This document shows, one piece after another, positions 426-55,706 of a stretch of 64,000 nucleotides of DNA (its first letter is position 1; the number at the start of each line of letters is the position of its first letter). This DNA comes from a virus. A program made the translations under genes and the position numbers. The notes below the pieces were generated by a model that saw nothing but the letters and a program-made list of their open reading frames with translations, was not told where the DNA came from and searched no databases. The stretch spans positions 11,517 through 75,516 of the IMG/VR virus record IMGVR_UViG_3300036828_000389; one strand, written 5' to 3'.

Positions 426-1376
426 ATGACATCGATACCGGCTCCCAACGCCGACGCCATGGCCGCCCTGCCCAATGCTGACTGGATCGTGGTCAACACC
501 AGTGCTGGCAAGGACTCGTCCGTGACCCTGGACTACACCCTGGAACTGGCCGACAGCCTGGGCATCGACCACAGCCACATCGTGGCCGTCCACTGTGACC
601 TGGGCCGGGTGGAGTGGGAGGGCACGCCGGAGTTGGCCGAGCGCCAGGTGGACCGCTACGCCGACATCCGCTTCTTCAAGGTGGCTCGCGACGGCACGGT
701 CCGCAAGGATGGCAAGGTGCTGGGTGACCTGGTCGACCAGGTCTGGGAGCGCCATGAGGCCAACCAGGAGAAGGCCAAGACCGACCCCCGCTACGCCAAC
801 CGCTCGCCCTGGCCCACGACCGCCAACCGCTGGTGTACCAGTGACCAGAAGGAGAGCCAGGTCACCAAGCTGATCACCCAGCTGGTGGACGACATCCTGG
901 TGGGTGGCACCCGGAAGGACCGCAAGGACGCCTGGGTCCGCGAGGCCGACGGCACCTACACCCAACGCCCCATCCGCATCATCAACGTGATGGGCATGCG
1001 GGCTGAGGAGTCCGAGAAGAGGAGCCAGATGCCCGAGTGGAGCCTGGACGAGTCCGCCAGCAACGGCAAGCGCACCATCTGGAACTGGCTGGCCATCAAG
1101 GACTGGTCTGAGGAGCAGGTCTGGGACCGCATCCATGCCCAGGGCATTGAGTACCACTGGGCCTACGACAAGGGCATGGAGCGGCTCAGCTGCTGCTTCT
1201 GCGTCCTGGCCAGCCCCAAGAACTGGGCCATCGCCCTCCCTCACAACCGCCAGCTGGCTGAGTCCTACGCCGAGATGGAGCGCCGCACCGGCCATGCCAT
1301 GGTGGAGCGGGCCAACGGCACCAAGGTCAGCATCCAGGACATCATCGACGCCGCTGATCGAGCAGCTGCCGCCTGA
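426..1376 (+). CDS. Phosphoadenosine phosphosulfate (PAPS) reductase-family / DndC-like PP-loop protein
   Basis: PP-loop NTSAGKDS, RWCTSDQK, GMRAEESEKR, IKDWSEEQVW, YDKGMERLSCCFC. Confidence 0.85.
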   Translation: MTSIPAPNADAMAALPNADWIVVNTSAGKDSSVTLDYTLELADSLGIDHSHIVAVHCDLGRVEWEGTPELAERQVDRYADIRFFKVARDGTVRKDGKVLGDLVDQVWERHEANQEKAKTDPRYANRSPWPTTANRWCTSDQKESQVTKLITQLVDDILVGGTRKDRKDAWVREADGTYTQRPIRIINVMGMRAEESEKRSQMPEWSLDESASNGKRTIWNWLAIKDWSEEQVWDRIHAQGIEYHWAYDKGMERLSCCFCVLASPKNWAIALPHNRQLAESYAEMERRTGHAMVERANGTKVSIQDIIDAADRAAAA

Positions 1377-1399
1377 GCCCTCCAGCCAGCTGTACCCCC

Positions 1400-1424
1400 G
1401 GAGCCCCCCACCACGGGGGGCTCT
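1400..1424 (+). terminator. GC-rich hairpin, probable terminator
   Basis: GGAGCCCCCC-ACCAC-GGGGGGCTCT. Confidence 0.65.
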
Positions 1425-1883
1425 GTCGCGTCCAGGGCTCACCGGTCCACCAGCCAGCCCAGGAGAGGCCAGCCGCCCCGCCAGTCGCCATGAGCCCGGC
1501 AGAACCAGCCTGGCTCCGTGAAGCAGTGCCAGACCGCCACCAGCTGGCCACAGTCCCGACACCGGAGCATGCCCCCAAGCTACCCCCAGAGAGCCCGAAT
1601 CGCTCCCAAGGCTCCAGGAGGCCATAGCCGGGCCGGAATGGGTGCATGTACCCCTATGGGGGTATAGACGCTCCTGGAGCCCTACAGGCCCCTCTCCTGG
1701 CCGCCAGCACCCAACCTGGCCTGGAATCCGGCCCCCAGAGCCCTCCCACACGTCTGAGGGGGTATGGAATGCGCCCATAATCAAGTGGTCATTTCGCAAA
1801 ACAGCCTCCAGAGAGCCCAAAAACGGCCTCGCGACCCTCCCCAGGACCGGACAATCGGGCCCGATCCGACGTACAGCCAGGGC

Positions 1884-2081
1884 ATGTACACCGAAGCCAA
1901 GACCCTCATCCCGCACGGCATCGACGCCCAGGAGCTACGCCTCCTCCTCAGACGCGTCCAGCAGCAGGGCATGCCCTACACCAACCGGGCCACACGTCGC
2001 AGAGCCAGCCAGGCCGCCCGCCAGGCCCGAGCCAAGAAAGCGGCCCAGCACCCCCATGTAGAGAGCTACCCAGTCAGCTGA
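1884..2081 (+). CDS. Small basic hypothetical protein (MYTEAKTLIPHGID...)
   Basis: In-frame ATG inside ORF 1764..2081, phage-like codon use, TACAGC 6 nt upstream. Confidence 0.45.
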   Translation: MYTEAKTLIPHGIDAQELRLLLRRVQQQGMPYTNRATRRRASQAARQARAKKAAQHPHVESYPVS

Positions 2082-2489
2082 CCAGGCCATGCATGCACGC
2101 ACCCATGCACCCATGCCAGCACCAGGTAGCAACTACCCCAGCACTCCACTCCCTCTCTAGCCTGGCAGCCCCCACGCAGAGTGACCACCACTGTGGGTGT
2201 ACACAGGGTGTATGCATATGCAGGGGTATGCAGGGGGGATACTCCAAACCATAAACTACACCCATGGGGGCATAAACACAGCCACCAGGGAGAAACCCTT
2301 ACGTAGCAAGGGAAACAGGGCTCAGGGAGGGGGATTAGCAAACGAGTTTATGAGTTTATGGGGGTACGCCATACACCTATTCACGCCAGTGCATACCCAT
2401 GGGGGTACAACCACCCAGAGTACCCCCACCCTTAACCACGCAGAGTGGCCAGGGGGGTCCAGGACACAGGCTCTCGTAGGAGGAAGAAG

Positions 2490-2527
2490 GGGTCGTAGTA
2501 CCTGGGAGAGAGGGTCGTAGTACCTGG
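2490..2527 (+). repeat. Direct repeat GGGTCGTAGTACCTGG x2
   Basis: Two copies 22 nt apart, starting at 2490 and 2512. Confidence 0.8.
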
Positions 2528-2623
2528 GGGCGATGGGGTTCTTCTACATAAGTGCTGGTCAGAGCAGGTAAACAGCGCTACAGGCGTGCTGTGAAGGCTG
2601 CCAAGCGGGGGTATGCTCGGGGT

Positions 2624-2887
2624 ATGAAACCACTGGATGAAGAGGCTGCTGACTACCTGGGTACGCACCCGGAGGCTCGCCACGCCATGCTCAAGCACAA
2701 CCACCGGCTGCTCTACCGCATCAACCCGGACGGCAGCGTGACCCGGGGCCGGGAGCTTCTGGCTGAGGTGGTGAAGGGTGCAGTGCCGGAGGGCGGGGTG
2801 TACCAGTTCGATACCGACGAGGAGCATCGGCGGCTCTCGGAGCATCTGGACGTGGCCTTCAAGCGTCAGGAGGGGCGCAGCAACTAG
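2624..2887 (+). CDS. Hypothetical protein (leaderless)
   Basis: GGGGG-TATGCT-6 nt-ATG at 2624, in frame with ORF 2552..2887. Confidence 0.7.
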   Translation: MKPLDEEAADYLGTHPEARHAMLKHNHRLLYRINPDGSVTRGRELLAEVVKGAVPEGGVYQFDTDEEHRRLSEHLDVAFKRQEGRSN

Positions 2888-2928
2888 GTGTACGGTGTAC
2901 GGCGTACCTGCGAGAAAGAGGTGACGCT

Positions 2929-3285
2929 ATGGAGGCGAATCAGCTGCCAGGGGAACTGGCGCCCCTGGTGAAGGCGTGGGACGACGACTGCTGGGCCCAG
3001 CAGGCCCGGGTGAACCGGGAGAAGGGCTACCCGGCTCCCTGGTGGTGCAACGCCATGCGAGCCCGGGGGGCGCTCCAGGCCGCTCTCAACCTCCTGCGGG
3101 AGGGGGAGAGGGCCGGGCAGCCCCAGCAGGGCTATCTGCACATGCTGGAGATCGGGGAGGTGAAGGCCAGCGTGGAGTACGGGGTATGCCGGGAGGAGTG
3201 GGCGCCGATCTGGGCCTACTTCCCCGCTGAGGTGCGTTGGGCCCGGAAGGTGTTGCGCTTGAGCGGCATCGACCCGCCGTCATGA
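2929..3285 (+). CDS. Hypothetical protein
   Basis: SD GAGGTG, 118 aa, followed by a hairpin. Confidence 0.7.
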   Translation: MEANQLPGELAPLVKAWDDDCWAQQARVNREKGYPAPWWCNAMRARGALQAALNLLREGERAGQPQQGYLHMLEIGEVKASVEYGVCREEWAPIWAYFPAEVRWARKVLRLSGIDPPS

Positions 3286-3289
3286 AAGT

Positions 3290-3321
3290 CGAGAGCCCCC
3301 CTGGCGGGAGGGGGGCTCTCG
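3290..3321 (+). terminator. GC-rich hairpin, probable terminator
   Basis: CGAGAGCCCCCCT-GGCGGG-AGGGGGGCTCTCG. Confidence 0.7.
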
Positions 3322-3410
3322 TAGCGCCCGGGAACTGGTCCCAGCGCAGGTCGCGGGGCGGTTCCGCGACGCCGCATAGCATACACCCACGGGGGTGTAG
3401 GATCCCGGTC

Positions 3411-3605
3411 ATGGCGAGGTATCGGGTCCAACAGAACCGCTCGGGCTGGCTGGTGCTGGACGGCAACACCCCGGTCAACTTCTTCTCAGCTGTAGATCCG
3501 GATCAGGGTCACGCCTCTGCCACCAGGTGGAACGTGGCCTACCAGCGGGCCCAGGACGAGGTCGACTGGCTGAATGCCCAGGAGGCGCCAGCCCGTGATC
3601 GGTGA
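3411..3605 (+). CDS. Hypothetical protein (leaderless)
   Basis: TAGGAT(3398-3403)-7 nt-ATG 3411; MARYRVQQNRSGWLVLDG... Confidence 0.65.
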   Translation: MARYRVQQNRSGWLVLDGNTPVNFFSAVDPDQGHASATRWNVAYQRAQDEVDWLNAQEAPARDR

Positions 3606-4563
3606 GAGCCTGCGGCCCCGGGATGTAGCGTATCTCCGCGGTCAACTACGGGACTGGTGGGCCATCCCGGGCGAGTTACAGTACAAGCTGGCCATGCACG
3701 GGCGCCGGGACATGCCCGGCTGGAAGATGTCCGGCGACGAGACCGAACAGACCCGCCAGCACTACGCCTACGCCCTGGCCAAGGCCGATCTGTACTGGAT
3801 ATCGCCCGACATGAGTGACATGGTGGCCACTCTGGCTCCTTCTATACCGGATTGCATGCCCTACCCGCCCTGCCCCTGCGGCTTCGCCCTGTTCGCTCGC
3901 TCCATCCCCGGCATCGACGCCGTGGACGGCAACCAGATCTACACCACCGGCTTCCTGTGGGCCCAGATCAACCTGGCCAACCTGGGTGACTGCCTGGCCG
4001 TCACCACCTACAGCTGGCGGGGCCTGGTGAAAGCCTTCGACCAGCTGAAGAAGGAGAACCGGCGCCGGGAGGCGGAACTGGATCGCAAGCTGTCGGAGGT
4101 CATGCCCACCCAGCTGTTCCCGACCGGGGGCTGGGAGTGGCCGGAGGGGCACATGATGGAGGACTTCTCCAGCCTGCCCCCCAGTAGCGCCATCATGGAG
4201 GCGTCGATCCTGGAGGATCGCCGGATCCTGTCAACCTTCTGGACCCTCTGCTCGCAGAAAATCACCGTCGAAACAAGAGCCCAGCCCTCCAGGAATGAAA
4301 TACGGGCAGCCACCCGGAAACGGCTCCCCGTACCAGTCGATGAGGTCCGCGTCATCAACCTGCGAGAGGTCGAGACGCGGCATCCAGGTCAGAATGGGCG
4401 GGATATCGATTGGCAGTATCGCTGGATCGTGTCGTCGCATTGGCGGAACCAGTATTACCCTTCCCGGGGCGAGCATATGCCCAAACTGATCGACGCTTAC
4501 CAGAAGGGGCCGCCGGATCGCCCCCTCAAGGTCCGCGACACCGTGAAAGCGCTGGTGCGCTGA
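3595..4563 (+). CDS. Conserved phage hypothetical protein with C-terminal HWRxQ domain
   Basis: SD GGAGG before GTG 3595; C-terminal WIVSSHWRNQYYP...YQKGP motif recurrent in phage proteins of unknown function. Confidence 0.75.
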   Translation: MIGESLRPRDVAYLRGQLRDWWAIPGELQYKLAMHGRRDMPGWKMSGDETEQTRQHYAYALAKADLYWISPDMSDMVATLAPSIPDCMPYPPCPCGFALFARSIPGIDAVDGNQIYTTGFLWAQINLANLGDCLAVTTYSWRGLVKAFDQLKKENRRREAELDRKLSEVMPTQLFPTGGWEWPEGHMMEDFSSLPPSSAIMEASILEDRRILSTFWTLCSQKITVETRAQPSRNEIRAATRKRLPVPVDEVRVINLREVETRHPGQNGRDIDWQYRWIVSSHWRNQYYPSRGEHMPKLIDAYQKGPPDRPLKVRDTVKALVR

Positions 4564-4593
4564 TCATGATCGATCCAAAAGAAAGGAAGCACC

Positions 4594-5277
4594 ATGACCA
4601 CCACCCCTGAACCATCCGTTAACGACCTGAGTCCGATCTCCAAGGCGGGCCCAGCCAACCTGGAACCGGCCTTCCTGATCGACACCAGCGGCTCCATGAG
4701 CTATCCCACCACCGCTGATGGCAAGGTGGAGCGCCGGGAACTGGTCGGAGAGGCCATCCCCTTGATCGTGGCCGGGCTGGAGGGCTTCGACGCCCAGGCG
4801 GCCAAGGAGACTGAGGCTGCGGGCGAGGAGGAGGGCGGCGTGATGACCGTCACCTTCGCGTCGGAGGCCGTGGTGGTGGGCGACATCAACTCCGGCAACG
4901 TCCGCGACCAGTGGAAGGCCATCCGCTGGGGCGGGGGCACCAACATCGTGCCCGGCTACCAGCTGGTCTTGTCCAACTATATGGAGGAGTTTGGCGACGA
5001 AGACCCGACCTCGCGGCCCGCTCTGCTGTGCATGGTCATCACCGACGGCGAGGCCGCCGACGAGGCCGAGTTTGAGCAGCTGCTGGAGAAGTCCAAGGGC
5101 GGCACCTACGTGGCCGTAGCGGTGGTGGGCTACGGTCCGGAGCATGATGCTGCCTTCAGTCAGTACCAGCGCATCGCCGGTAACAACAACCACGTCCGGG
5201 CCCTGTCCTTCGCGGACGCCACCGACCCCAACAGCCTGGCTACCTCTCTGCTGGCCATGTTCGGCGGCACCCCCTGA
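4594..5277 (+). CDS. von Willebrand factor A (vWA, MIDAS) domain protein
   Basis: FLIDTSGSM (DxSxS), GGGTNI, VITDGE motifs; SD AAGGAAG. Confidence 0.85.
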   Translation: MTTTPEPSVNDLSPISKAGPANLEPAFLIDTSGSMSYPTTADGKVERRELVGEAIPLIVAGLEGFDAQAAKETEAAGEEEGGVMTVTFASEAVVVGDINSGNVRDQWKAIRWGGGTNIVPGYQLVLSNYMEEFGDEDPTSRPALLCMVITDGEAADEAEFEQLLEKSKGGTYVAVAVVGYGPEHDAAFSQYQRIAGNNNHVRALSFADATDPNSLATSLLAMFGGTP

Positions 5278-5280
5278 CGT

Positions 5281-5637
5281 ATGAGTGAGCCTCCCCATCG
5301 TTGGTGGTACTGCGTCAGCTGCTTTGCCATCAACGATGGCCTGGAGGAGGCCCGGTGCTGGAACTGCCAGACCGCTTTCCCTAGTCGCCACAAGCACAAG
5401 CCCTGGTGCGAGATGGGCCGCCAGCGCTGCGACGTGTGCCGTAAGTACTACGTGACCTGGACGCTTCCGGCCGGGACCACCTTGACCATCCCTGACGTGT
5501 TGGGATTCTGCCCCTTCTATTTTGAGCATTACGGCGACGACGCCTATTTCCCACCCATGCTCCCAGCCATCTACGTCCTAGAGGCCAATGGTTACAGCTA
5601 CAACGAGAAGCGAAAGAAGCTGGAGAAGATCAGGTGA
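5281..5637 (+). CDS. Cys-rich Zn-finger hypothetical protein
   Basis: CVSC, CWNC, CDVC motifs; tightly packed operon. Confidence 0.6.
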   Translation: MSEPPHRWWYCVSCFAINDGLEEARCWNCQTAFPSRHKHKPWCEMGRQRCDVCRKYYVTWTLPAGTTLTIPDVLGFCPFYFEHYGDDAYFPPMLPAIYVLEANGYSYNEKRKKLEKIR

Positions 5638-5837
5638 GCGACCTGCCGCTTGAAGGAGATAACGAGGTGGTGGTCACGGGCGCTTTGTTGATGCTCGTCG
5701 GCGCACGCTTCAAGACCGAACCTGTAACTACGGAGGAGAGACAGGCCACCAATGAGCTTTACGTTTGGCCTGAATTTATGAAGTCCCGTTACCGCATCAC
5801 AGTCACACTTGATCCCGAAGGAAAGGAAGAGCAATGA
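5634..5837 (+). CDS. Hypothetical protein
   Basis: GTGA/ATGA overlaps at both ends. Confidence 0.65.
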   Translation: MSDLPLEGDNEVVVTGALLMLVGARFKTEPVTTEERQATNELYVWPEFMKSRYRITVTLDPEGKEEQ

Positions 5838-6103
5838 CAACACTGGTGCAAGAGGCCAACCGTATCGAGGACAGCGAGGTTGGCGTGCTGGTCATCCTGG
5901 ACCGCAGCGGCGACACCCGGCACACCTGGGACCGGCGCAACGAGGACGAGGTGCAGGTCATCCGCGACCTGTTCGGCCGCATGATCGACAAGGGCTACCA
6001 GGCGTGGTCGGTGACCCGTAAGGGCGACAAGGATCAGCGCATCACTGAGTTCGACCCCCAGGCTGAGAAGGTGATCTTCGCCCCAGCGCTGGTGGGTGGT
6101 TGA
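5834..6103 (+). CDS. Small protein ending in diglycine (..FDPQAEKVIFAPALVGG*), possible ubiquitin-like/sulfur-carrier protein
   Basis: 89 aa; GGT GGT TGA end; alternating beta/alpha pattern. Confidence 0.75.
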   Translation: MTTLVQEANRIEDSEVGVLVILDRSGDTRHTWDRRNEDEVQVIRDLFGRMIDKGYQAWSVTRKGDKDQRITEFDPQAEKVIFAPALVGG

Positions 6104-6717
6104 TGCCCCAGCAGCTGTACTACCAGCAGTACTGCAACACCACCGCGACCACGAACTACTACGTCCCCACCTGGGGGAGCAACAACGCCACCATCACCTA
6201 TCAGCAGGGCATTCCAACCAATCAGTACTACGCGCCCATCATCACCAGCACCAGCACTGATCAGATCTGGCAGCAGTGGGTGATCATGGGGAACGGCACC
6301 ATAACCACCAGCGGTACGCCCACCACCTTCTGGCAGGAGACTGCGGAGCAGATGGAGGCTCATCGCGAGCAGCGGGAGCGGGAGCGGGAGGAGCGGGTGG
6401 CCGCTCGGACCCGGGCCCGGGTGCTGCTGGAGGACTTCCTCAACGACGAGCAGAAGGTGGAGTTGGAGCGCCATAGTCGCTTCCACGTCACCGGGTCGCG
6501 GGGACGGCGCTACTGCATCCGCACCACCGGCCAGGCTGGCAACGTCGACCTGCTCAAGGACGATGGACAAGTCCAGGCTCAGCTGTGTTGCCATCCCCGG
6601 GGCTACCTGCCCGATGGGGACGCCTGGTTGATGCAGATGATCGAGCTACGTCACGACGAGGATCACTTCCTGGCCACGGCCAACGTCCACCGGGGGGCGC
6701 TCCCCGCAGCCGCATGA
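6103..6717 (+). CDS. Partner of the diGly protein: T/Q/Y-rich N-terminus, charged helix, C-terminal domain with LCCHP
   Basis: TGATG coupling; FHVTGSRGRRYCI, LCCHPRGYLPDGD, DEDHFLATAN. Confidence 0.75.
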   Translation: MPQQLYYQQYCNTTATTNYYVPTWGSNNATITYQQGIPTNQYYAPIITSTSTDQIWQQWVIMGNGTITTSGTPTTFWQETAEQMEAHREQREREREERVAARTRARVLLEDFLNDEQKVELERHSRFHVTGSRGRRYCIRTTGQAGNVDLLKDDGQVQAQLCCHPRGYLPDGDAWLMQMIELRHDEDHFLATANVHRGALPAAA

Positions 6718-6956
6718 GCGATGAACTCGACCCTGGCTTCATCGCCATTGAGCAGCAGGTAGATCTCGGTGGCCAGGTGCTGAGCCTGACCGGCAAGGTG
6801 AACCTGATCGGCCTGTCCGCGGCCCAGCGTGAGGTGCTGCTCGACATCCTGGACGCCTTCGCTCGCCTGGGCTCCAAGACCCGCACGCGAGAGAGGGTGC
6901 GAGCCACGCGGGCCCGTACTGCCGTTCCTCAGGAGGAAGAGGAGGGAGGGGAGTGA
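6714..6956 (+). CDS. Hypothetical protein
   Basis: ATGA overlap; MSDELDPGF... Confidence 0.65.
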   Translation: MSDELDPGFIAIEQQVDLGGQVLSLTGKVNLIGLSAAQREVLLDILDAFARLGSKTRTRERVRATRARTAVPQEEEEGGE

Positions 6957-7093
6957 CTTGCGGTCACCGCTGGCCGCTCCTCGACCCCAACGAGGATGAC
7001 CGGGTCAATGGCGTCACCCATAAGTGCAGTCGTGAGCCTGGACATGGTGATGATCATCTGTGCGTCTGTGGGGCCCGGCCGGGGGACGACTGA
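6953..7093 (+). CDS. 46-aa Cys/His Zn-binding mini-protein (not in ORF track)
   Basis: MTCGHRWPLLDPNEDDRVNGVTHKCSREPGHGDDHLCVCGARPGDD; GTGA and TGATG overlaps. Confidence 0.65.
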   Translation: MTCGHRWPLLDPNEDDRVNGVTHKCSREPGHGDDHLCVCGARPGDD

Positions 7094-7287
7094 TGCCCCC
7101 CCACTTCGACAACCCCACCAACGCCCTGGCCGAAGATATCGCCATCTGGCTTGCTGACGGGCACGGGGACGTGGAGGATTACATCCAGGATGCCTACGAC
7201 CTCATCAGAACCCTGCGGGCCCGGGGGTGGCAGTTCTCTGTCGCTCTCGGGCGCGCTGACTCCACCGGACGAGTCCCGCTGCGGTGA
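7093..7287 (+). CDS. Hypothetical protein
   Basis: TGATG coupling; MPPHFDNPTNAL... Confidence 0.6.
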   Translation: MPPHFDNPTNALAEDIAIWLADGHGDVEDYIQDAYDLIRTLRARGWQFSVALGRADSTGRVPLR

Positions 7288-7523
7288 AGAACTGCGCTGG
7301 TCCCTGGCGTTGGTATTGCCGGTGGTGTGGGGCGAAAGAGCAATATGACGATCCCGCTGAACGGGATCGTTCTGCGTATGAACACGTTGTCTTGATTCAC
7401 CCTGGCCCTGACTATGTGGTCAGATCAGCCTCATTTGGGCACCTTCTGCATGTGTGGCCCATCCCTTCAAGTCTTTCTGACGGCACAGAGCGTGCCTACC
7501 CTGGCGTCGATGCCCCTGAGTAA
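7284..7523 (+). CDS. Zn-finger-like hypothetical protein
   Basis: WYCRWCG...HVVLIH; GTGA overlap. Confidence 0.55.
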   Translation: MKNCAGPWRWYCRWCGAKEQYDDPAERDRSAYEHVVLIHPGPDYVVRSASFGHLLHVWPIPSSLSDGTERAYPGVDAPE

Positions 7524-7980
7524 CCTGCCCGGTCCCTGGCGTTGGGAGAAGCGCAACGGGTTCTGGTGGCGGATTCACGATGAACTGAGGATCGAGGACG
7601 GGCCCCATGAGTGGAACGAACTCAACATCGGCCTGGGTGGCTACGGGGAGGGCAGCCGTTGGCTCGACCGGGACGGCGAACCTATTCCAGTCATAGTGGC
7701 GAGCGACCTCCTGGCTGACCCGGACTACAAGGTCATCGCCAAGGACGTGTTCATCTACGACGACACCCCCATGGAGGTCTCCACCGTCTGGCTCGGGCTG
7801 GATCACAACTGGTGGCCTGATCGCTCTCCTCAGATCTTTGAGACCATGATCTTCGCCCCTGGCACTGACTGGGATCTCAACCTGTGGCGCTACAGCACCG
7901 AAGCTGAGGCTCGCGAAGGACATACTGAGGTGTTGGCTATGGTAAAAGACGCGGAGCAGCACCGAAGGAGGAACTTGTGA
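7510..7980 (+). CDS. Conserved phage hypothetical protein
   Basis: VSTVWLGLDH..P.IFETMIF..RYSTEAEAREGH motif typical of a widespread phage family. Confidence 0.75.
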   Translation: MPLSNLPGPWRWEKRNGFWWRIHDELRIEDGPHEWNELNIGLGGYGEGSRWLDRDGEPIPVIVASDLLADPDYKVIAKDVFIYDDTPMEVSTVWLGLDHNWWPDRSPQIFETMIFAPGTDWDLNLWRYSTEAEAREGHTEVLAMVKDAEQHRRRNL

Positions 7981-8013
7981 GTCAGTATTCGGACATGACC
8001 GGGGAGGGCTGAC

Positions 8014-8280
8014 ATGGCCAAGGTGGATGCGGTCAGCTGCGATACGTGCCAGCGGGTCGAGCGTCCCGCAGAGGGGGCCCAGCTGCCCCTGGAGTGGTAT
8101 CAGGCCACGGTCTTCCAGCAGGGCTCCGGCGAGGTGCTGAGCGACAGCACCTTCTGCTCCTGGGACTGTGTGAACCTGGCCATGAAGCAGGAGCCGGAGG
8201 TCAAGGTCCGCCGGAAGCGTCGGACCCGGGAGCAGATGGAGGCGGACGCGGCGGCAGCTGCTGCGACCGCCAGTGCCTAG
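8014..8280 (+). CDS. Zn-binding protein with basic tail
   Basis: CDTC...FCSWDC; RRKRRTREQMEAD; SD GGAGG. Confidence 0.7.
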   Translation: MAKVDAVSCDTCQRVERPAEGAQLPLEWYQATVFQQGSGEVLSDSTFCSWDCVNLAMKQEPEVKVRRKRRTREQMEADAAAAAATASA

Positions 8281-8596
8281 TGACCCCTGGCAGGATGCCA
8301 GTGCTAAAGCCTGGGTTCGCAACGTCCTCAAGAACATGCTGCCCAAGCTGGAGGGTTCCTCCTGCACCATCTCCCTGGTGCCACAGGACAGGGAGGGTGA
8401 TGTCAAGTTCTGGGTGGAGCTAGGGGCCTCGATCATGCTCGACAAGCCCTTGATCGCCGTCCTGTTGGGCGACGCCCCCTGTCCCCGCAAGCTGGCCCTG
8501 GTCGCGGATGAGATCGTCAGGTGCCCGGATGGCATCGATCCGGCCAGTAGCGAGGAATTGGCTGCGGCCCTCAGGCGAGTGTTGGGTGATGAGTGA
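8273..8596 (+). CDS. Small nucleoside-deoxyribosyltransferase-like fold protein
   Basis: FWVELGASIMLDKPLIAV resembles the NDT E-L-G-x-A...K-P motif. Confidence 0.55.
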   Translation: MPSDPWQDASAKAWVRNVLKNMLPKLEGSSCTISLVPQDREGDVKFWVELGASIMLDKPLIAVLLGDAPCPRKLALVADEIVRCPDGIDPASSEELAAALRRVLGDE

Positions 8597-8762
8597 CACC
8601 CCGGAGAACCTGGAGGCATTCCCCCCGGTCCCCGAACTGGGGGGCGCCATCGGCCGGACAGCGTCTGACGCCTGTCGTCAGGGCCAGCATGATCTGTGCA
8701 AGGACGACACATGCATGTGTCGTCACCATGAGCGCTTGTGGTACGACCAGGTACTGAGGTGA
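8589..8762 (+). CDS. Small Cys/His-rich protein
   Basis: CRQGQHDLCKDDTCMCRHH; overlaps both neighbours. Confidence 0.55.
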   Translation: MSDTPENLEAFPPVPELGGAIGRTASDACRQGQHDLCKDDTCMCRHHERLWYDQVLR

Positions 8763-9274
8763 ACCACCAGGACACCTTTGATGACCTGTGCATCCTGCTG
8801 GAGCAGCACCTGGGTCGCGGCATCGATGACGTGGCCACCGAGATCATGGCCTTCCTGGACATCACCAGCGAGGTGATCCTCTCGGAGCGGGATCCGCCGC
8901 CGGGCCTACGCCGCTGGCTGGCCTCTCACGGACTTGTCCTGGTGGCCGCCGCCGAACCCACGCCCACCCACGTCATGGATCTGATCGATGAGGACGACGA
9001 CGTGGTCGAGGCTGAGGTGTCCACCCAGGAGAGGGCGGGGGGGAGTAGCCCTCTCCTGGGCGTGGGGGACTACGTACAGTACCGCACCGCTCCGATGGGT
9101 CCGAACAACATGAGCCAGCTGGGCTCGGGCACCGTCGTCGGCGTCCACACCGAGAGCATCGAGGTGGAGTTCTCCCCGAACGGGGGCCGGATCGTGCTGT
9201 TCCTTGAAGCCGACACCATCCAGGTGATCCGGTCTAGCCGCGACGAAGACGCCGGGTCGGAGCAGCTGCTGTAG
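8759..9274 (+). CDS. Hypothetical protein with C-terminal SH3/KOW-like domain
   Basis: GTGA overlap; VGDYVQY...GSGTVVGV..IEVEF. Confidence 0.6.
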   Translation: MNHQDTFDDLCILLEQHLGRGIDDVATEIMAFLDITSEVILSERDPPPGLRRWLASHGLVLVAAAEPTPTHVMDLIDEDDDVVEAEVSTQERAGGSSPLLGVGDYVQYRTAPMGPNNMSQLGSGTVVGVHTESIEVEFSPNGGRIVLFLEADTIQVIRSSRDEDAGSEQLL

Positions 9275-10184
9275 CTGGCTCGGGAGCCGGAGCAGGCGCC
9301 CCGCCTTGGCGAGGGACGGCCACCTGGATCTCCACCTTGTCCAGGCGGGTCAGGAAGTCATCGAATTTGCCGCCCAGCTGGTTGGCCCACTCATCCAGAC
9401 CTGACAGGAAGCTCTGTAGGGTGGCGGACACGTCCACCGCTGTCTCTACCACGGCAACGGCAGCTATGGGCTCCCCTGGGGGTACAGGCGCCTCCTGGGC
9501 CTCCTCAGGCTCTCCCTGGGCGGCCAGGATGAGATCCACCATGGCCTGGCGGGTCTTCTTCGGCGGCACGCCCAGCTGGGCCCCGATGTCCTTCAGATCG
9601 TCCATGGACATCTTCTCCAGGTCGGTGCGAGCGAAGATCTCCATCTCCTCCGTGGCCTCGCCCTCGTCCTCGTCGGCAGCTGCCGCGGGCTCAGCCTCCT
9701 CCCCGCCTTCAAAGCTCATGGGGATGAGCCCCTCCGTCAGTTCCCGCACGTCGAGCCCGGCGTCGATGAAGCTGGAGAACATCTCCTCCTGCTCGGACGT
9801 GTCCCGCTCCTTGTCCCACAGCAGGAACAGGGCGGACCGGGGCGCCTCCTTGAGGCTCTGCTCCAGCTGGAGGATGGGATCCTCGACGTTGATGACCTTG
9901 GCGGCGTCGTTGGCCATCTCCACGAAGGCCCGCTTGGAGGTGTCGCTGGAGCGGGTGATGACCTCGTAGACGATGTCGGAGGACTTGGCGATGGCGACGT
10001 ACTCCGTCAGGGTGGCTGTGAACTCGCCGTCCACCAAGACGAACATCCACTTGACCGACTCTGAGGGCTTGATGTTGGCGTCCAGGTACTCCTGGATCAG
10101 CACCATCCCGGCATCCACGTCCATGGCTCCTGTGCCCAGGAAGCCGATGGTGATGCCTTCGGGTGTACCGCGGCGGGGGGGCAT
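9234..10184 (-). CDS. Acidic protein with N-terminal alpha/beta domain and Rho-N/HeH-like motif
   Basis: SD AGGAGAAGGAG before ATG 10184; DLEKMSMDDLKDIGAQLGVPPKKTRQAMVDLIL. Confidence 0.75.
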   Translation of the reverse strand: MPPRRGTPEGITIGFLGTGAMDVDAGMVLIQEYLDANIKPSESVKWMFVLVDGEFTATLTEYVAIAKSSDIVYEVITRSSDTSKRAFVEMANDAAKVINVEDPILQLEQSLKEAPRSALFLLWDKERDTSEQEEMFSSFIDAGLDVRELTEGLIPMSFEGGEEAEPAAAADEDEGEATEEMEIFARTDLEKMSMDDLKDIGAQLGVPPKKTRQAMVDLILAAQGEPEEAQEAPVPPGEPIAAVAVVETAVDVSATLQSFLSGLDEWANQLGGKFDDFLTRLDKVEIQVAVPRQGGAPAPAPEPATAAAPTRRLRRG

Positions 10185-10256
10185 GCGTTCTCCTTCTCCT
10201 AGCTCAGGAGGACACCCAAGCAGCCCCAGTCCGCCAGACCAAGCCGAAGTGAGAAG

Positions 10257-50918: not shown

Positions 50919-53900
50919 GTGGCCTACGCCCTCGTCGGAACCATCGGTGCGGTATCGCAGGGGGCTGCATCCGCAGCTGTAACCGCGGCCTGGGGTACCA
51001 GCGAGAACCGCACTGCTAACAATCTGCTGACCTGTTCGGTATCGGGCACAGGCATCGCCACGCTGCCCACCACGCCCGCAGGCTGGTCGATAGGGGTCCA
51101 ACGGGCTGGTACCAGCTGTAGCGTCACCGTCTACTACAAGGTGGCTGCTGGAGCGGACGCCGCCCCGACCATTGCTGCTGTTACCAGCGCGGTGTGGGCG
51201 GTACAACTGGCCGAGTACTCCGGTGGTGCGGCCAGTCCGGCGGACCAGTCGGGTGGTAACAGCGCCACCACCAGCCCGCTGGTGGCAACCTGTGGTGCTG
51301 CGGATGCCGGAGCCGGGGACTTGGTCATTGGTTGCCAGGCTCTCCTCAACTCAGCGGCTCGTACCAACGCCACCTGGTCCCCGGCCTTCAACAACGGGGC
51401 CACAGCCACCAGCAACGTCAACAACGCCGCCACCTCCACCGCTAACCACTACGGGTTCGTCTACGGCACTACCACTGGTAACGCTGCCGCCGACACCCAT
51501 ACCCTGACCTTCACCACCACCAGCGTCACTGGCTGCGCGGTGGCCATGGCCAGCTTCAAGCTGACGCCTGTGCAGGCCGGTACGGCGACGCTGTCAGCTA
51601 CAGCTGGTATGACGGTCGCTGGTACGAGCCCTCGTCCCTACCTGGTGGCTCAGGGCCCGATCAATCAGGGTACGGGGACACTCGCTCCGACCTTCGGGCA
51701 GCCCACCACCGCAGGCAACCTGCTGGTGTGCCTGATCTCTGAAAACGCCAACTCGCCCATTGTCACCAACCCCAATGGTGCCTGGGTGCTGGCAGGTAGA
51801 CAGGCTCAGAACTACGGCATCATCTACTACCGGCCGAACTGTCTGGCCAGTGAGTCGCCGCCCACCTTCACTGATGGTTCATGTGGTGGCCAGGGCACAG
51901 CCATATTGCTGGAGTTCGGGAACGTAGCTACCAGTAGTCCTCTTGACTTGACTACTAACACTCAAGGCTCATCAAACCCCTACACCCTTACCCAGGGGGC
52001 TCCTAGCGCAGCCCCAGGTGAGCTTCTAATAGCTGTCGCTGGTGCTAGTGCTTCCGAAGCCTCAGGCAGCCTTACGTTCAACAACGCCACGGCTGTCAAC
52101 ATCGCCAGCAATACGGCTCACGTAGTGAACTACCAGATGGTCTACGGCATTGGCACCACTAACGCCACCGCAGACTCGACCACGGTCACCTACTCCGCTA
52201 CCCCTGGGGTGTATGGAGCCGTTTTCGTTTCGTTCAAAGGGACCGGCCCGTCCACAATTGTAGGTGCAGTTGCACTACACGCTACTGCTGGGATGACGGC
52301 GATTGCCACGACGGTGTCCGGCTCAGCATCGTTCAGCACTCTGGCGGATGACTTCAACTCCGGATCAATCAACAGCACCACCTGGACGAACGGATCACCT
52401 AGCCAGATCAGCGTGGTGGCTGGGCAACTTCAGGTAGCCACTGTGACGGCGGCGCAAGAGAACCAGTTATATACGAACAGTTTCTATGATCTGACATCGT
52501 CGTATGTGTCTATGCAGTTGGTCAGTGCTGGTAATACCGCCCTCACCAGTCTGGATATGTACCCGGTCCTGTTGCAGGATTCTGGTGGTACCAATCAGTT
52601 GTATTGGTATCAGAACAATGGGTTCCTAGCTGCCTACCAAAATGTGGCGGGTACCTCGACGCAGGTATTCCTCGTCAGCTATAACAGCACGAATCAGCAA
52701 TGGTTGCGTATCCGTGAGGCGGCGGGCACGACTTACTGGGAGTACTCGGCGGACGGTTCTACCTGGACGGTGGCACACAGCGTAGCCAACCCTATCCCTG
52801 TCACATCGTTGCGGCTGATCATGCAGGCTGGGACGTTTAGTACCGCTACATCGGCCTCGACGGTCATTTTTGACAACGTCAATACCACTCCAGCAAGTGG
52901 GGCGTTCGTCGGTACTGCTACCGCGAGTATGTCGGTGGCTGCCTCGATCACTGAAGTCTCCTCTGTCGCGCTGGCTGGTACCGCCGGGCTGACCGTCACT
53001 CCGACGCCTGTGTTCGGGTCGCTCCAGGACAACTTCGACACCAACGTCATCGACGCGACCAAATGGAACGCCAGCAATACCACTCAGGTCACCGCAGCGA
53101 GCCAGCGAATCAACATTGCCAGCACAACCGCGCCAGCGGTGTACTACCTGGCCTCAACTCATTTCTACGAGTTGGAGGGCAGTGGCGTTGTCGTGCAGTG
53201 TGGCGTCGGCAGCCAGGCCATCAACAGCTTTGAGACCTACCCCATCCTGATCGAGGTCGACGGGAACAACCAGCTGTACTTCTACGTCCTCCAGGGCTTC
53301 ATCGCCGCCTACACGGTCATTGGTGGCACCCAAACACAGGTGGCGTCGGTTGCTTACAGCGCCACCAGCCATGCCTGGCTCCAAATCTCGGCTACCCCTA
53401 CCACTGTCTACTGGTGGACTTCTCCAGATGGGCACACCTGGACGCAGTTCGCCAGCGCTGCGCTGAACGTCATCTTCAACCAGCCGATGCAGTTCTACTT
53501 CCAGGCTGGCACCTACAACACAGAGGTGTCGACCACCTCGTCCTGGATCGACAACGTCAACCTACAGCCATCAGCTGTCAACCTCAGTGGTAGTACCGGG
53601 ATGACTGTGGGGGCCCTGGTCACTGAGGTCGCGAGTGTGACCCTGGCGGGTGGGGCAGCACTGAATGTGTCGGCCCTGGTGACTGAGGTCTCCAGTGTGT
53701 CCATGTCCAGTACGACCAGCCTGATCGCTACTAGTTCCACGGCGGCTATCGACTTCGGCACTGTCGTTTTGACCGGGACTGCGGGCATGGTTGTGAGTGC
53801 TGCTGTCACCGAAGTCGCCAGTGTATTGGAGTCGGCTAACGCTGGAATGACCGTCACTGGTGTCCAGGTGCAGTTTGGGGCTGTGGCTCTGTCCGGTACG

Positions 53901-55706
53901 GGCGGCCTCACGGTTGCAGCGTCGGTGACCGAAGTCGCCAGCGTCAGCATGGCTGGTTCAACATCCCTGACGGCGGCCGGTACCAGGACTCAACTCGGCA
54001 CGGTAGCCCTGGCCGGTACAGCTGGGATGGCTGTCGCCGCATCAGTAACAGAAGTCGCCACCGTCGCGCTGTCCGGCACGGCTTCGTTGGCAGCGACCGG
54101 TACCCAAACCCAGTTTGCCACTGTTGCCCTGGCTGGTACTGCGGGCATGACCGTCACCGGTACCTGGGTTCAGGTGGCGGCGGCCAACCTATCGGGCTCG
54201 TCTGGCCTGACGGTGTCGGCCTCAGTCATTGAAGTCGCCTCTGTTCCTCTGTCGGCTGCGTCGGGGATGACAGTCACCGGGACCAGGATTGTGCCCGCAG
54301 CGGTACCCCTATCCGGCACGGGTGGACTCACAGTCAGTGCCTCCGTTGTCGAGGTCGCGGCGGTAAACCTGTCTGGCTCTGGTGCCATGACCGTGGCGGC
54401 GAGTGTTACTGAACTTGCGGCAGTGTCCCTGTCGGGATCCACTGGCCTAGTGGTGGCAGCTGGTGTCACCGAACTGGCCACGGTAGCCATGTCCGGGTCC
54501 ACCGTTATGACCGTCGCGGCCGGTGGCACCCAGGCTGGCCAGGTAACTCTGGCGGCAACGGCCGGGGCCACGGTGTCCGCTTTGGTCACCGAACTGGCCA
54601 CAGTAGCCATGTCCGCCCATGGGAGCCTGGCCACCAACGCGTCCTTAGCTATCACCAGCACCGTGGCTATGGCAGCGAGTGCCGCCCAGACCACCACGTC
54701 CCTGGTGACTCAGCTGGCATCGGTAACTGAGTCGGGCTCGACCACGCTGACGGTCAGCATGGGGGCGGGTCTGGTGACGGCTACGGTCGGGCTGTCGGCG
54801 GCTGCCTCCCTGACTGCGGCGGGCACCGTCATCTATATGCCGTCGGTGGTCTTGGCTGGGACCACGTCCCTGACGGCTACCGGCCTACGAACCGTCCTGG
54901 GGATCGTCAACCTTGCGGGTGTCGCCAGCGTGACCGTCGCGGCCACCGCTGCTTCCTTCGCGCTCGTCGGCCTGGCAGGAGCTACCTCGCTGACGGTCTC
55001 GATATCAGGAACCGAGACAGCCAGCGTTCTCATGACAGCTGCATCGGCCCTGACCCCGGTTGGAACCATGACCAGGTGGGGCGCATTGGCCTGGGCCGCC
55101 AGTGCCAGCATGGTCGTAACTGCGGGCCCTGTTCAGATCGTCGCCCAGGTCACCATGTCCTCCCTGGCGTCCATGGTGGTGGCCGGGTTCTTGCCCCAGA
55201 CCGTTCAGGGACAAGTCCAGATGGGCGCCACGGCACATCTGGTGGCCGCGGCCGGGGAACAGGAGATCGCCAATGTCACTATGTTGGTCAACGCCGTCTT
55301 GCTCGCCAGTGGATTCCTGCCCCAGACGATTCAGGGTCAGGTGGCCATGGCAGCCCTCACCAACCTGGTCGCGACCGGACTGATCAACCCGGTTATCTTC
55401 CTCCATATGAGCGCATCGACATCCCTCACGACTACGGCCCATGTGCTGGAGGTGTCGCAGTCGGTCCTCACGGCCAGAGCATCCATGACTGTCTACGCCA
55501 CGACGGCTGCACCAGTCCGAGTGGATATGTATGCCAACACGGCGATGACGGTGACAGCTGTTGTCGAAACGCCAGCTGGAGTCCCTGAGATGCCCTCCCT
55601 GGAGGATCAGATCATCGGCGTGGCGGGAGAGGATCCCATCCTGATGGGAGCGTCTGGCTACTTGAATGAGCTATTTACTTCTCGGCTGCTGAGTGATTCG
55701 GAGTAG
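50919..55706 (+). CDS. 1595-aa virion fibre/decoration protein with duplicated beta-domains and 20-aa repeats
   Basis: A/T/G/S/V-rich; two lectin-like DDF..W domains; repeat V.LSG..GxTV.A.VTEVA. Confidence 0.8.
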   Translation: MAYALVGTIGAVSQGAASAAVTAAWGTSENRTANNLLTCSVSGTGIATLPTTPAGWSIGVQRAGTSCSVTVYYKVAAGADAAPTIAAVTSAVWAVQLAEYSGGAASPADQSGGNSATTSPLVATCGAADAGAGDLVIGCQALLNSAARTNATWSPAFNNGATATSNVNNAATSTANHYGFVYGTTTGNAAADTHTLTFTTTSVTGCAVAMASFKLTPVQAGTATLSATAGMTVAGTSPRPYLVAQGPINQGTGTLAPTFGQPTTAGNLLVCLISENANSPIVTNPNGAWVLAGRQAQNYGIIYYRPNCLASESPPTFTDGSCGGQGTAILLEFGNVATSSPLDLTTNTQGSSNPYTLTQGAPSAAPGELLIAVAGASASEASGSLTFNNATAVNIASNTAHVVNYQMVYGIGTTNATADSTTVTYSATPGVYGAVFVSFKGTGPSTIVGAVALHATAGMTAIATTVSGSASFSTLADDFNSGSINSTTWTNGSPSQISVVAGQLQVATVTAAQENQLYTNSFYDLTSSYVSMQLVSAGNTALTSLDMYPVLLQDSGGTNQLYWYQNNGFLAAYQNVAGTSTQVFLVSYNSTNQQWLRIREAAGTTYWEYSADGSTWTVAHSVANPIPVTSLRLIMQAGTFSTATSASTVIFDNVNTTPASGAFVGTATASMSVAASITEVSSVALAGTAGLTVTPTPVFGSLQDNFDTNVIDATKWNASNTTQVTAASQRINIASTTAPAVYYLASTHFYELEGSGVVVQCGVGSQAINSFETYPILIEVDGNNQLYFYVLQGFIAAYTVIGGTQTQVASVAYSATSHAWLQISATPTTVYWWTSPDGHTWTQFASAALNVIFNQPMQFYFQAGTYNTEVSTTSSWIDNVNLQPSAVNLSGSTGMTVGALVTEVASVTLAGGAALNVSALVTEVSSVSMSSTTSLIATSSTAAIDFGTVVLTGTAGMVVSAAVTEVASVLESANAGMTVTGVQVQFGAVALSGTGGLTVAASVTEVASVSMAGSTSLTAAGTRTQLGTVALAGTAGMAVAASVTEVATVALSGTASLAATGTQTQFATVALAGTAGMTVTGTWVQVAAANLSGSSGLTVSASVIEVASVPLSAASGMTVTGTRIVPAAVPLSGTGGLTVSASVVEVAAVNLSGSGAMTVAASVTELAAVSLSGSTGLVVAAGVTELATVAMSGSTVMTVAAGGTQAGQVTLAATAGATVSALVTELATVAMSAHGSLATNASLAITSTVAMAASAAQTTTSLVTQLASVTESGSTTLTVSMGAGLVTATVGLSAAASLTAAGTVIYMPSVVLAGTTSLTATGLRTVLGIVNLAGVASVTVAATAASFALVGLAGATSLTVSISGTETASVLMTAASALTPVGTMTRWGALAWAASASMVVTAGPVQIVAQVTMSSLASMVVAGFLPQTVQGQVQMGATAHLVAAAGEQEIANVTMLVNAVLLASGFLPQTIQGQVAMAALTNLVATGLINPVIFLHMSASTSLTTTAHVLEVSQSVLTARASMTVYATTAAPVRVDMYANTAMTVTAVVETPAGVPEMPSLEDQIIGVAGEDPILMGASGYLNELFTSRLLSDSE
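53577..55565 (+). repeat. About 30 degenerate 20-aa (60-nt) coding repeats
   Basis: VNLSGSTGMTVGALVTEVAS / VTLAGGAALNVSALVTEVSS / VALSGTGGLTVAASVTEVAS ... Confidence 0.8.

Follow-up and report, generated by a model that had tools for sequence, protein, structure and literature searches.

Can a virus of bacteria carry a protein-tagging pair of its own, made of a small ubiquitin-like protein and a partner that would handle its C-terminus? The question is raised by two adjoining genes in a 64,000-nucleotide stretch of viral DNA (positions 11,517 to 75,516 of IMG/VR record IMGVR_UViG_3300036828_000389, hereafter the window), the first coding for an 89-aa protein that ends in Gly-Gly and the second for a 204-aa protein with an invariant cysteine. 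To our knowledge, descriptions of bacterial ubiquitin-like conjugation have until now cast it as anti-phage defence (Bil, Bub and the Cap2 of CBASS), and a phage-borne counterpart, if true, would put the same chemistry on the viral side. We find that the module formed by the two genes is real, widespread, virus-specific and undescribed in the literature that we searched; its chemistry is what we infer. Our preferred reading, to which we give a probability of about 40%, is that the pair consists of a ubiquitin-like modifier or carrier and a cysteine-bearing partner, activated by an enzyme of the host.

The 75.5-kb virus record comes from soil, and only two soil-metagenome DNA runs hold the stretch, with no RNA holder listed; among the window's genes are those for DNA polymerase, helicases, terminase, portal and baseplate proteins. 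The original prediction, made from the sequence of the window, had noted a small protein ending in Gly-Gly whose stop codon overlaps the start of its neighbour in a TGATG, and the coordinates of the open reading frames (ORFs) bear this out (Table 1). The C-terminus of the small protein reads ...AEKVIFAPALVGG, ending in PALVGG, and the stop TGA (6101-6103) and the ATG of the partner (6103-6105) have one base, the A, in common, which suggests that translation of the two is coupled. We place the start of the partner at this ATG and not at the TTG at 6100, because its homologues begin with MPQ. The flanking genes are fitted just as closely: a 67-aa ORF upstream and an 80-aa ORF downstream each overlap the pair by an ATGA, so the pair is packed as in an operon. 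This operon, a run of tightly packed small non-structural genes, covers positions ~426-9274 and borders on a tail and baseplate module encoded by the opposite strand. A conserved ORF ending in Gly-Gly and coupled in this way to its partner is far above what chance would give.

Homologue searches, which the original prediction had named as a check on the Gly-Gly end, find it both conserved and terminal. There are 75 close homologues of the small protein, nearly all metagenomic, and G88 and G89 are invariant and the last two residues in the 45 that were aligned (45/45). The same end is found in 18/18 IMG/VR loci, at identities down to 37%. Further, a profile search of 1.84 billion representative sequences returned 1963 clusters at E ≤ 0.001 and 570 at E ≤ 1e-10, clusters and representatives being defined at 50% identity. 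The ends of the 149 best representatives, mutually less than 50% identical, were examined: 125 (84%) stop exactly at Gly-Gly, 13 have one to seven extra residues after it, 3 have it internal to a longer protein and 6 end in a single Gly that follows another residue. Over 150 diverse sequences, conservation amounts to 100% for W32, 99% for G26, 97% for F73, 95% for G89, 94% for A57 and 93% for G88.

This constraint acts on the protein and not on the DNA. At 22 loci all four GGN codons are used for the two glycines, the stop may be TGA, TAG or TAA, and the distance to the next gene varies; such synonymous variation, together with that in stop and spacing, locates the constraint at the protein level rather than in a ribosome-binding site. 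The idea that Gly-Gly is kept merely as a GGNGGN ribosome-binding site for the partner was rejected, since the third codon positions vary, as does the spacing between the two genes (from an 8-nt overlap to +287 nt), and since one locus has an intervening gene. A programmed frameshift or read-through fusion was also rejected, the frame relation between the genes not being constant.

Several family members depart from the simple form. P0210 is a natural fusion of small protein and partner, with Gly-Gly at the joint and the Thr/Gln/Tyr-rich region of the partner missing, P0164 and P0216 have N-terminal additions of 80-130 aa that belong to no known family, and P0272 is a tandem duplication. P0205 and P0280 also belong to the variants, one kind of which is fused to an unrelated region on the C-terminal side. 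Longer fused forms were searched for, with no result. The small protein has no match in Pfam, PHROGs or PADLOC, the ThiS/MoaD families included; its profile matched PDB sequences only spuriously, to pentatricopeptide repeat (PPR) proteins. The ESM Atlas gave unnamed clusters only. Some of the 89-aa homologues (P0007, P0016, P0026, P0029 and others) carry the JGI names 'metallophosphoesterase superfamily enzyme' or 'pentatricopeptide repeat protein'. The second name arises because the long helix happens to resemble the PPR consensus, and both look spurious.

Whether the two genes always occur together was the second question of the original prediction, and homologue searches from either side point to co-conservation. 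Starting from the small gene, 20 of 21 loci (18 from IMG/VR, two from GenBank, and the window) have the partner immediately after it in the same orientation; in the remaining one a 98-codon ORF intervenes. The search from the partner side gave 25 viral loci, with the small gene directly upstream in 23 of the 24 that could be evaluated. The exception (L088, 2368-3342) lies in a 436-kb phage and codes for a 324-aa protein that has the C-terminal domain of the partner, with the cysteine kept, behind a different N-terminal part; a small gene ending in Gly-Gly was undetectable within 3 kb upstream, making this the sole lone partner that we saw. In most related loci the two genes overlap or are no more than 20 nt apart. 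All ORFs of five unrelated phage genomes from different clades (82-235 kb, 49-64% GC) were then compared by BLASTP at E ≤ 0.001, and the small protein and the partner are the only families present in all five. The pair is therefore self-contained and portable, with no common third phage gene required. On the evidence of gene order and homology, it is a horizontally spread phage cassette with obligatory pairing.

Outside metagenomic viruses the pair is scarce. Among 185,579 prokaryotic species genomes (one genome each) there is one locus, on a contig of a Planctomycetaceae metagenome-assembled genome, where the pair is intact; the same assembly has two ThiF-family genes. The family occurs in 2 of 50,697 GenBank phage records, both uncultured (Virus Rctr197k and a 595-kb phage), and no cultured phage carrying the pair was found. 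A tblastn search of plasmids gave nothing, and Agrobacterium phage Atu_ph07 has no relative of the small protein at E ≤ 1, two positive controls being detected. As judged from these searches, the family is almost purely viral, widespread, and absent from Pfam, PHROGs and PADLOC; a literature search found no description of the module. In close relatives the pair stands beside the tail and baseplate module. Virus Rctr197k (L001; 4264-5070 and 6150-6989, and 2327-2581) carries the partner as two paralogues in a span of less than 3 kb; its small protein ends in ...STIPG and not in Gly-Gly, and an annotated CRISPR array and a transposase-like gene are found just upstream.

Which fold the small protein would adopt was assessed by structure prediction. 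The AlphaFold2 (AF2) model (pLDDT 77) runs from a short helix through two strands and a long helix to three strands, and leaves the last six residues, PALVGG, as an unstructured, free tail. A β-grasp fold had been considered in the original prediction, and the model is β-grasp-like, with weak scores. Every top Foldseek match in the PDB is a β-grasp protein (FAT10, UBX, SUMO, PB1), with a best E of 0.013 and probabilities up to 0.90. Structural alignment with VIA-align ranked proteins G and L, PB1 and UBL domains on top at Z 4.6-5.1, the best single match being protein G B1, and MoaD (Z 3.6), TtuB, SAMP1 and BubA lower; by the tool's own note, Z values at the levels obtained here for both proteins are below what unrelated models often reach. 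By prediction, then, the small protein is a β-grasp protein without affinity to one described family. Its ubiquitin-like reading is well supported by anatomy and conservation.

The partner has two very different parts, as the original prediction had seen correctly: a Thr/Gln/Tyr-rich leader and a C-terminal region with an LCCHP motif (C162-C163-H164-P165). Its first ~76 residues have many Thr, Gln, Tyr, Trp and Asn and differ in both sequence and length between even close relatives; an alignment of 48 homologues has only one conserved element in the N-terminal part, a W-x-x-W motif (W56, W59). The model follows this division, with pLDDT means over 10-residue blocks of 34-66 up to residue ~80 and an average of 78 for the blocks 81-100. 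For the C-terminal domain, which is modelled with confidence, the prediction is of two helices (the long one from residue 81), then four strands that an eight-residue loop joins to two further helices, and one last strand. None of the 48 close homologues and none of the 47 diverse locus sequences (22 and 25), 95 in total, lacks Cys162. The prediction had named a Cys-His pair, and here only the cysteine stands: His164 is replaced by Val, Leu or Asn in several clades, and P165 is common without being universal. Over 14 diverse clades A105, C162, P170, D173, Q178 and A193 are invariant and N147, E186, N194 and G134 nearly so; the loop after the C-x-H-P tolerates insertions of up to ~20 residues. 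A single invariant cysteine, with no other Cys or His to hold a metal, points to a nucleophile.

Table 1. Features of the gene pair and its operon in the window
Feature	Position	Strand	Basis or remark
Small-protein gene	5834..6103	+	89-aa ORF; conserved in homologues
Two terminal Gly codons (GGT GGT), immediately 5' of the stop	6095..6100	+	Sequence read
TGATG junction, small-gene stop overlapping partner start	6101..6105	+	Sequence read
Partner gene	6103..6717	+	204-aa ORF; homologues found
Partner residues 1-97	6103..6393	+	First ~76 hypervariable; residues ~81-97 start the long helix (H81-112)
Conserved C-terminal domain, partner residues 98-204	6394..6714	+	pLDDT block means 74-97 from residue 101
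C162-C163-H164-P165 codons, end of strand 4	6586..6597	+	Cys162 codon 6586-6588; alignments
vWA gene	4594-5277	same strand as the pair, three genes upstream	PF00092, E 5.5e-7
PAPS-reductase/PP-loop family gene, head of the same operon	426-1376		PF01507, E 3e-16; phrog_424

The original prediction had also brought in the chemistry of E2 enzymes, ligases and peptidases for the partner. No family match by sequence speaks for it, and what it has is a faint likeness of fold to RWD and UBC domains. An exhaustive VIA structural comparison of the C-terminal domain put RWD domains on top, with 2daw at Z 4.9 (root-mean-square deviation 4.0, 103 aligned), the GCN2 RWD 2yz0 at Z 4.8 and 7e2k at Z 4.4; Ubc9 (4y1l) reached Z 4.8 (root-mean-square deviation 3.3, 85 aligned), VPS37A and FANCL came lower in the list, and the next unrelated folds stood at ~3.5. 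Foldseek against the PDB returned nothing for the partner, nor did a VIA re-check of the Foldseek list, and BFVD gave Rctr197k proteins and a weak match to phage Atu_ph07 only. Sequence searches were equally silent: the partner has no family match in Pfam, PHROGs or PADLOC and no rhodanese or cysteine desulfurase signature, and its profile has no useful match among PDB sequences. Weak matches to DUF6894 and LTXXQ were not reproduced in distant members and were dropped. A complex prediction of the C-terminal domain with the small protein scored 0.71 and a control 0.69, and it is counted neither for nor against any reading. The C-terminal domain would be, on its model, of RWD/UBC-like topology with an extra invariant cysteine, a consistent but weak lead, and the reading of the partner as an E2, ligase or peptidase is likewise a weak structural lead.

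The neighbourhood of the pair varies from phage to phage. The vWA gene that the original prediction placed in the same operon is genuine, but its inclusion in the module does not hold, as it is absent from four of the five compared genomes. In two relatives a vWA gene lies 3' of the pair (L008 8106-8855, overlapping the end of the pair, and L007 11184-11846, ~240 nt away), and in a close relative (G001) it is 10 kb from it. The unrelated phage G004 (235 kb) has a single vWA gene (L016 8239-9885, 548 aa), of a different vWA lineage; it lies directly upstream of the small gene and ends ~116 nt short of the region that tblastn matches to the small protein (10001-10237), and the longest ORFs of the two overlap. 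A vWA gene beside the pair thus recurs in two unrelated clades and from two different vWA lineages, and from its distribution it looks like a facultative accessory. The PAPS-reductase gene was not found near the pair in any other related locus. Neither gene is conserved across loci or genomes, and we rejected both as a fixed third component. Between the vWA gene and the pair, the window codes for a 118-aa Cys-rich protein (5281-5637) that is common to two close relatives only and has weak zinc-finger-like Pfam matches only (E 0.025-0.04). Elsewhere in the window, 3' of the genes for portal and head, a 1595-aa ORF (50919-55706) has as its only matches PHROGs without an assigned function (phrog_14065).

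How, then, might the pair work? A terminal Gly-Gly on the flexible tail of a β-grasp protein is the hallmark of carboxylates that are adenylated by E1-like enzymes. In the scheme that we favour, in which every chemical step, the host enzyme and the target are conjectural, the two proteins would be made together, probably through translational coupling, and the small protein would be a ubiquitin-like β-grasp protein presenting a flexible P-x-x-x-G-G tail with a free carboxylate. A host enzyme of the ThiF/MoeB class, invoked because none was found in the phage, would adenylate this carboxylate; the activated end would pass to Cys162 of the partner as a thioester and from there to a lysine of a host or phage protein, chosen by the fast-evolving N-terminal part of the partner. 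Such a host enzyme is plausible, since ThiF-family genes score over the cut-off in 11 of 14 control genomes and two are present in the Planctomycetaceae assembly that bears the pair. The fusion P0210 and the forms extended beyond Gly-Gly recall ubiquitin-like precursors and BubAB (PMC11601596). The last Lys or Arg of the small protein is K79, so that a tryptic remnant on a modified lysine would be the ten residues VIFAPALVGG and not Gly-Gly. What the module would be for is a matter of conjecture, the roles put forward in the original prediction being counter-defence or the hijacking of host proteolysis.

A number of observations weigh against this scheme. A free carboxylate needs ATP-dependent activation to become a thioester, so that the scheme depends on an enzyme of the host, the missing activating enzyme being its main weakness. 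In agreement with the original prediction, which had seen no E1 or JAB gene, no ThiF-type E1 (PF00899) was found in the window's record or in five related ones (four of them 97-100% complete), and Prok-JAB (PF14464) was not found in the five related records, the window's own record not having been searched for it; nor is there a third gene common to the phages that bear the pair. The fold scores are weak for both proteins (Z ≤ 5.1 for the small protein and ≤ 4.9 for the partner). By sequence, the partner has no E2, RWD or Prok-E2 match in Pfam (48 + 10 members scanned) or PADLOC, six-frame searches of five records with PF00179 (UQ_con) and PF05773 (RWD) gave none at E ≤ 10, and hhalign gave a probability of 0.2% against a Prok-E2_B domain. 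Further, the cysteine stands two residues before the His-Pro and not some 8-10 residues after an HPN, in the loop ahead of helix 2, as it does in E2s: there is no Cys after the His-Pro and no Asn after the Pro, and the His is lost in several clades. Since the HPN...Cys order is missing, no sequence match exists and Z is too low, we do not file the partner as an E2.

There are other explanations. The C-terminal domain might be an inactive RWD- or UEV-like domain that binds the ubiquitin-like protein non-covalently, the pair being an adaptor or a decoy of the host E1/E2 enzymes of Bil, Bub and type II CBASS, with a Gly-Gly tail that engages the defence enzymes and cannot be used by them. The best fold matches are indeed RWD domains, which are non-catalytic, the loop from strand 4 to the helix is short as in RWD, the cysteine is off its E2 position, and no E1 was found; RWD-like inactive E2 folds have been proposed as modifier binders in bacterial ubiquitin-like operons (PMC1779556), and anti-defence genes typically travel as such two-gene cassettes between unrelated lytic phages. 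Yet RWD-like inactive domains have no conserved cysteine, whereas here it is invariant in 95 sequences, and an epitope for plain binding seldom has to end in exactly Gly-Gly. Bil, Bub and type II CBASS are moreover found in a minority of bacteria, compared with 1963 clusters of this family, and there is no likeness to any PADLOC model; we regard non-covalent binding as somewhat unlikely, though worth serious thought. More doubtful is a sulfur carrier of the ThiS/MoaD/TtuB type, in which a host MoeB or ThiF would adenylate the Gly-Gly and a persulfide on Cys162 would yield the thiocarboxylate, for thio-modification of nucleic acids or cofactors during infection. The β-grasp with its terminal Gly-Gly, the presence of MoaD (Z 3.6), TtuB and SAMP1 among the fold matches, the short extensions after Gly-Gly that known carriers also have, the near-ubiquity of ThiF/MoeB in hosts and a single invariant cysteine suited to a persulfide relay are all in keeping with it, as is the PAPS-reductase/PP-loop gene in the same operon. 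That gene, however, was not found near the pair at any other locus, no sulfur-using enzyme is common to the phages that bear the pair, neither a ThiS/MoaD match nor a rhodanese or desulfurase signature turned up, and a metabolic relay offers no easy reason for a partner with a hypervariable N-terminal part.

Activation could also dispense with an E1. In E2-CBASS a bacterial E2 that carries a Cys-His pair, acting alone, processes the residue that follows the C-terminal Gly of cGAS and becomes joined to cGAS with no E1 involved (bioRxiv 10.1101/2022.05.25.493364), and with this precedent Cys162 and His164 might act as a cysteine protease or transpeptidase, drawing the energy of the thioester from a peptide bond after Gly-Gly. 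The 13/149 representatives with one to seven residues after Gly-Gly, the one natural fusion and the common C-x-H motif of the partner would suit such a reaction. It is nevertheless very improbable, since 84% of representatives and the protein of this phage stop at Gly-Gly and so offer no peptide bond to break, several clades have lost His164, and the variable frame and spacing mean that a programmed read-through or frameshift fusion is not general. The likeness to ubiquitin systems may, finally, be superficial, the pair being a two-subunit protein of another function, such as a regulator or assembly factor, in which Gly-Gly and the cysteine are structural. All fold scores are weak, there is no family match, the pair stands beside the tail and baseplate module in close relatives, and β-grasp is a very common small fold, protein G B1 being the best single match. 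An exact Gly-Gly over ~2000 clusters together with an invariant cysteine in the partner is hard to explain structurally, and the tail is predicted to be unstructured; we think a merely superficial likeness about as improbable as a sulfur carrier.

Returning to conjugation, a stricter form of it would be a minimal two-protein tagging system, in which a cysteine enzyme belonging to a new family, by itself or helped by a generic adenylating enzyme of the host, attaches the ubiquitin-like tag to host or phage proteins that its hypervariable N-terminal part picks. We hold this to be unlikely; if true, it would be the first in a virus of bacteria and the smallest known. The locus also poses a biochemical question of its own, namely how a free Gly-Gly end is activated when no E1 is encoded. 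With a portable unit of ~2000 clusters, one successful assay would annotate thousands of phage genes, and a decoy or a sulfur carrier as the outcome would still be a new phage strategy.

Compared with the systems already described, the pair resembles each in part. In Bil (BilABCD) and Bub (6E/DUF6527), too, a small β-grasp protein with a reactive C-terminal Gly stands beside a small E2-like α/β partner (PMC11601596; 10.1101/2023.09.04.556158; PMC10557695), and their ubiquitin-like proteins show varied N-terminal additions and tandem copies, as do P0164, P0216 and P0272 here. BubAB is a fusion of the ubiquitin-like protein (Ubl) with an E2 that is cleaved to free the Ubl (PMC11601596), a parallel to the natural fusion P0210. 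Yet an E1 is a constant part of Bil and Bub operons, and a JAB or serine peptidase a usual one, and none of these was found for this pair; Bub works through oxyester intermediates without a catalytic cysteine, whereas the partner has an invariant one; and their models have no sequence similarity to the pair. E2-CBASS is alike in having two components and no E1, in a cysteine with a nearby His that acts on the C-terminal Gly of its partner, and in the insertion of that tail into a pocket of the E2. It differs in that its substrate is a 400-aa enzyme from which the residue after the Gly is removed, while the proteins studied here mostly end in Gly-Gly, and in that its E2 is a recognisable UBC member with the canonical cysteine, while the partner has no sequence match and its cysteine precedes the His-Pro.

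RWD domains give the best, though weak, matches of the C-terminal domain, its predicted order of elements is the same as theirs, and the aromatic/His-Pro ... Pro after strand 4 resembles their YPxxxP; they have no conserved cysteine, however, no RWD-model match appeared at E ≤ 10, and Z is too low for homology. ThiS, MoaD, TtuB and SAMP are likewise small β-grasp proteins ending in Gly-Gly, some with short extensions, and depend on a ThiF/MoeB enzyme that may be encoded elsewhere, but the small protein has neither sequence membership nor a linked sulfur enzyme, and it comes, almost only in viruses, with a partner whose N-terminal part is hypervariable. The pair is a member of none of these closest systems: sequence match, E1, JAB and canonical cysteine are lacking, and the setting is viral. 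While Bil and Bub belong to bacterial defence and its islands, this pair is almost purely viral and resides in lytic-type phage genomes. Phages do offer a precedent, since TAPI of lambda and T1, which works with the neighbouring gene product TAPK, has a ubiquitin-like β-grasp domain with a conserved C-terminal glycine (PMC1779556). In TAPI this glycine is internal, before a Gly-rich linker and a second domain, and TAPK is a JAB and NlpC/P60 peptidase of the tail operon, whereas here Gly-Gly is terminal, the partner is unrelated, Prok-JAB was not found (five related records) and the pair lies among early or accessory genes. TAPI is nonetheless a described case of a phage ubiquitin-like domain acting with the product of the adjacent gene, as we propose for this pair.

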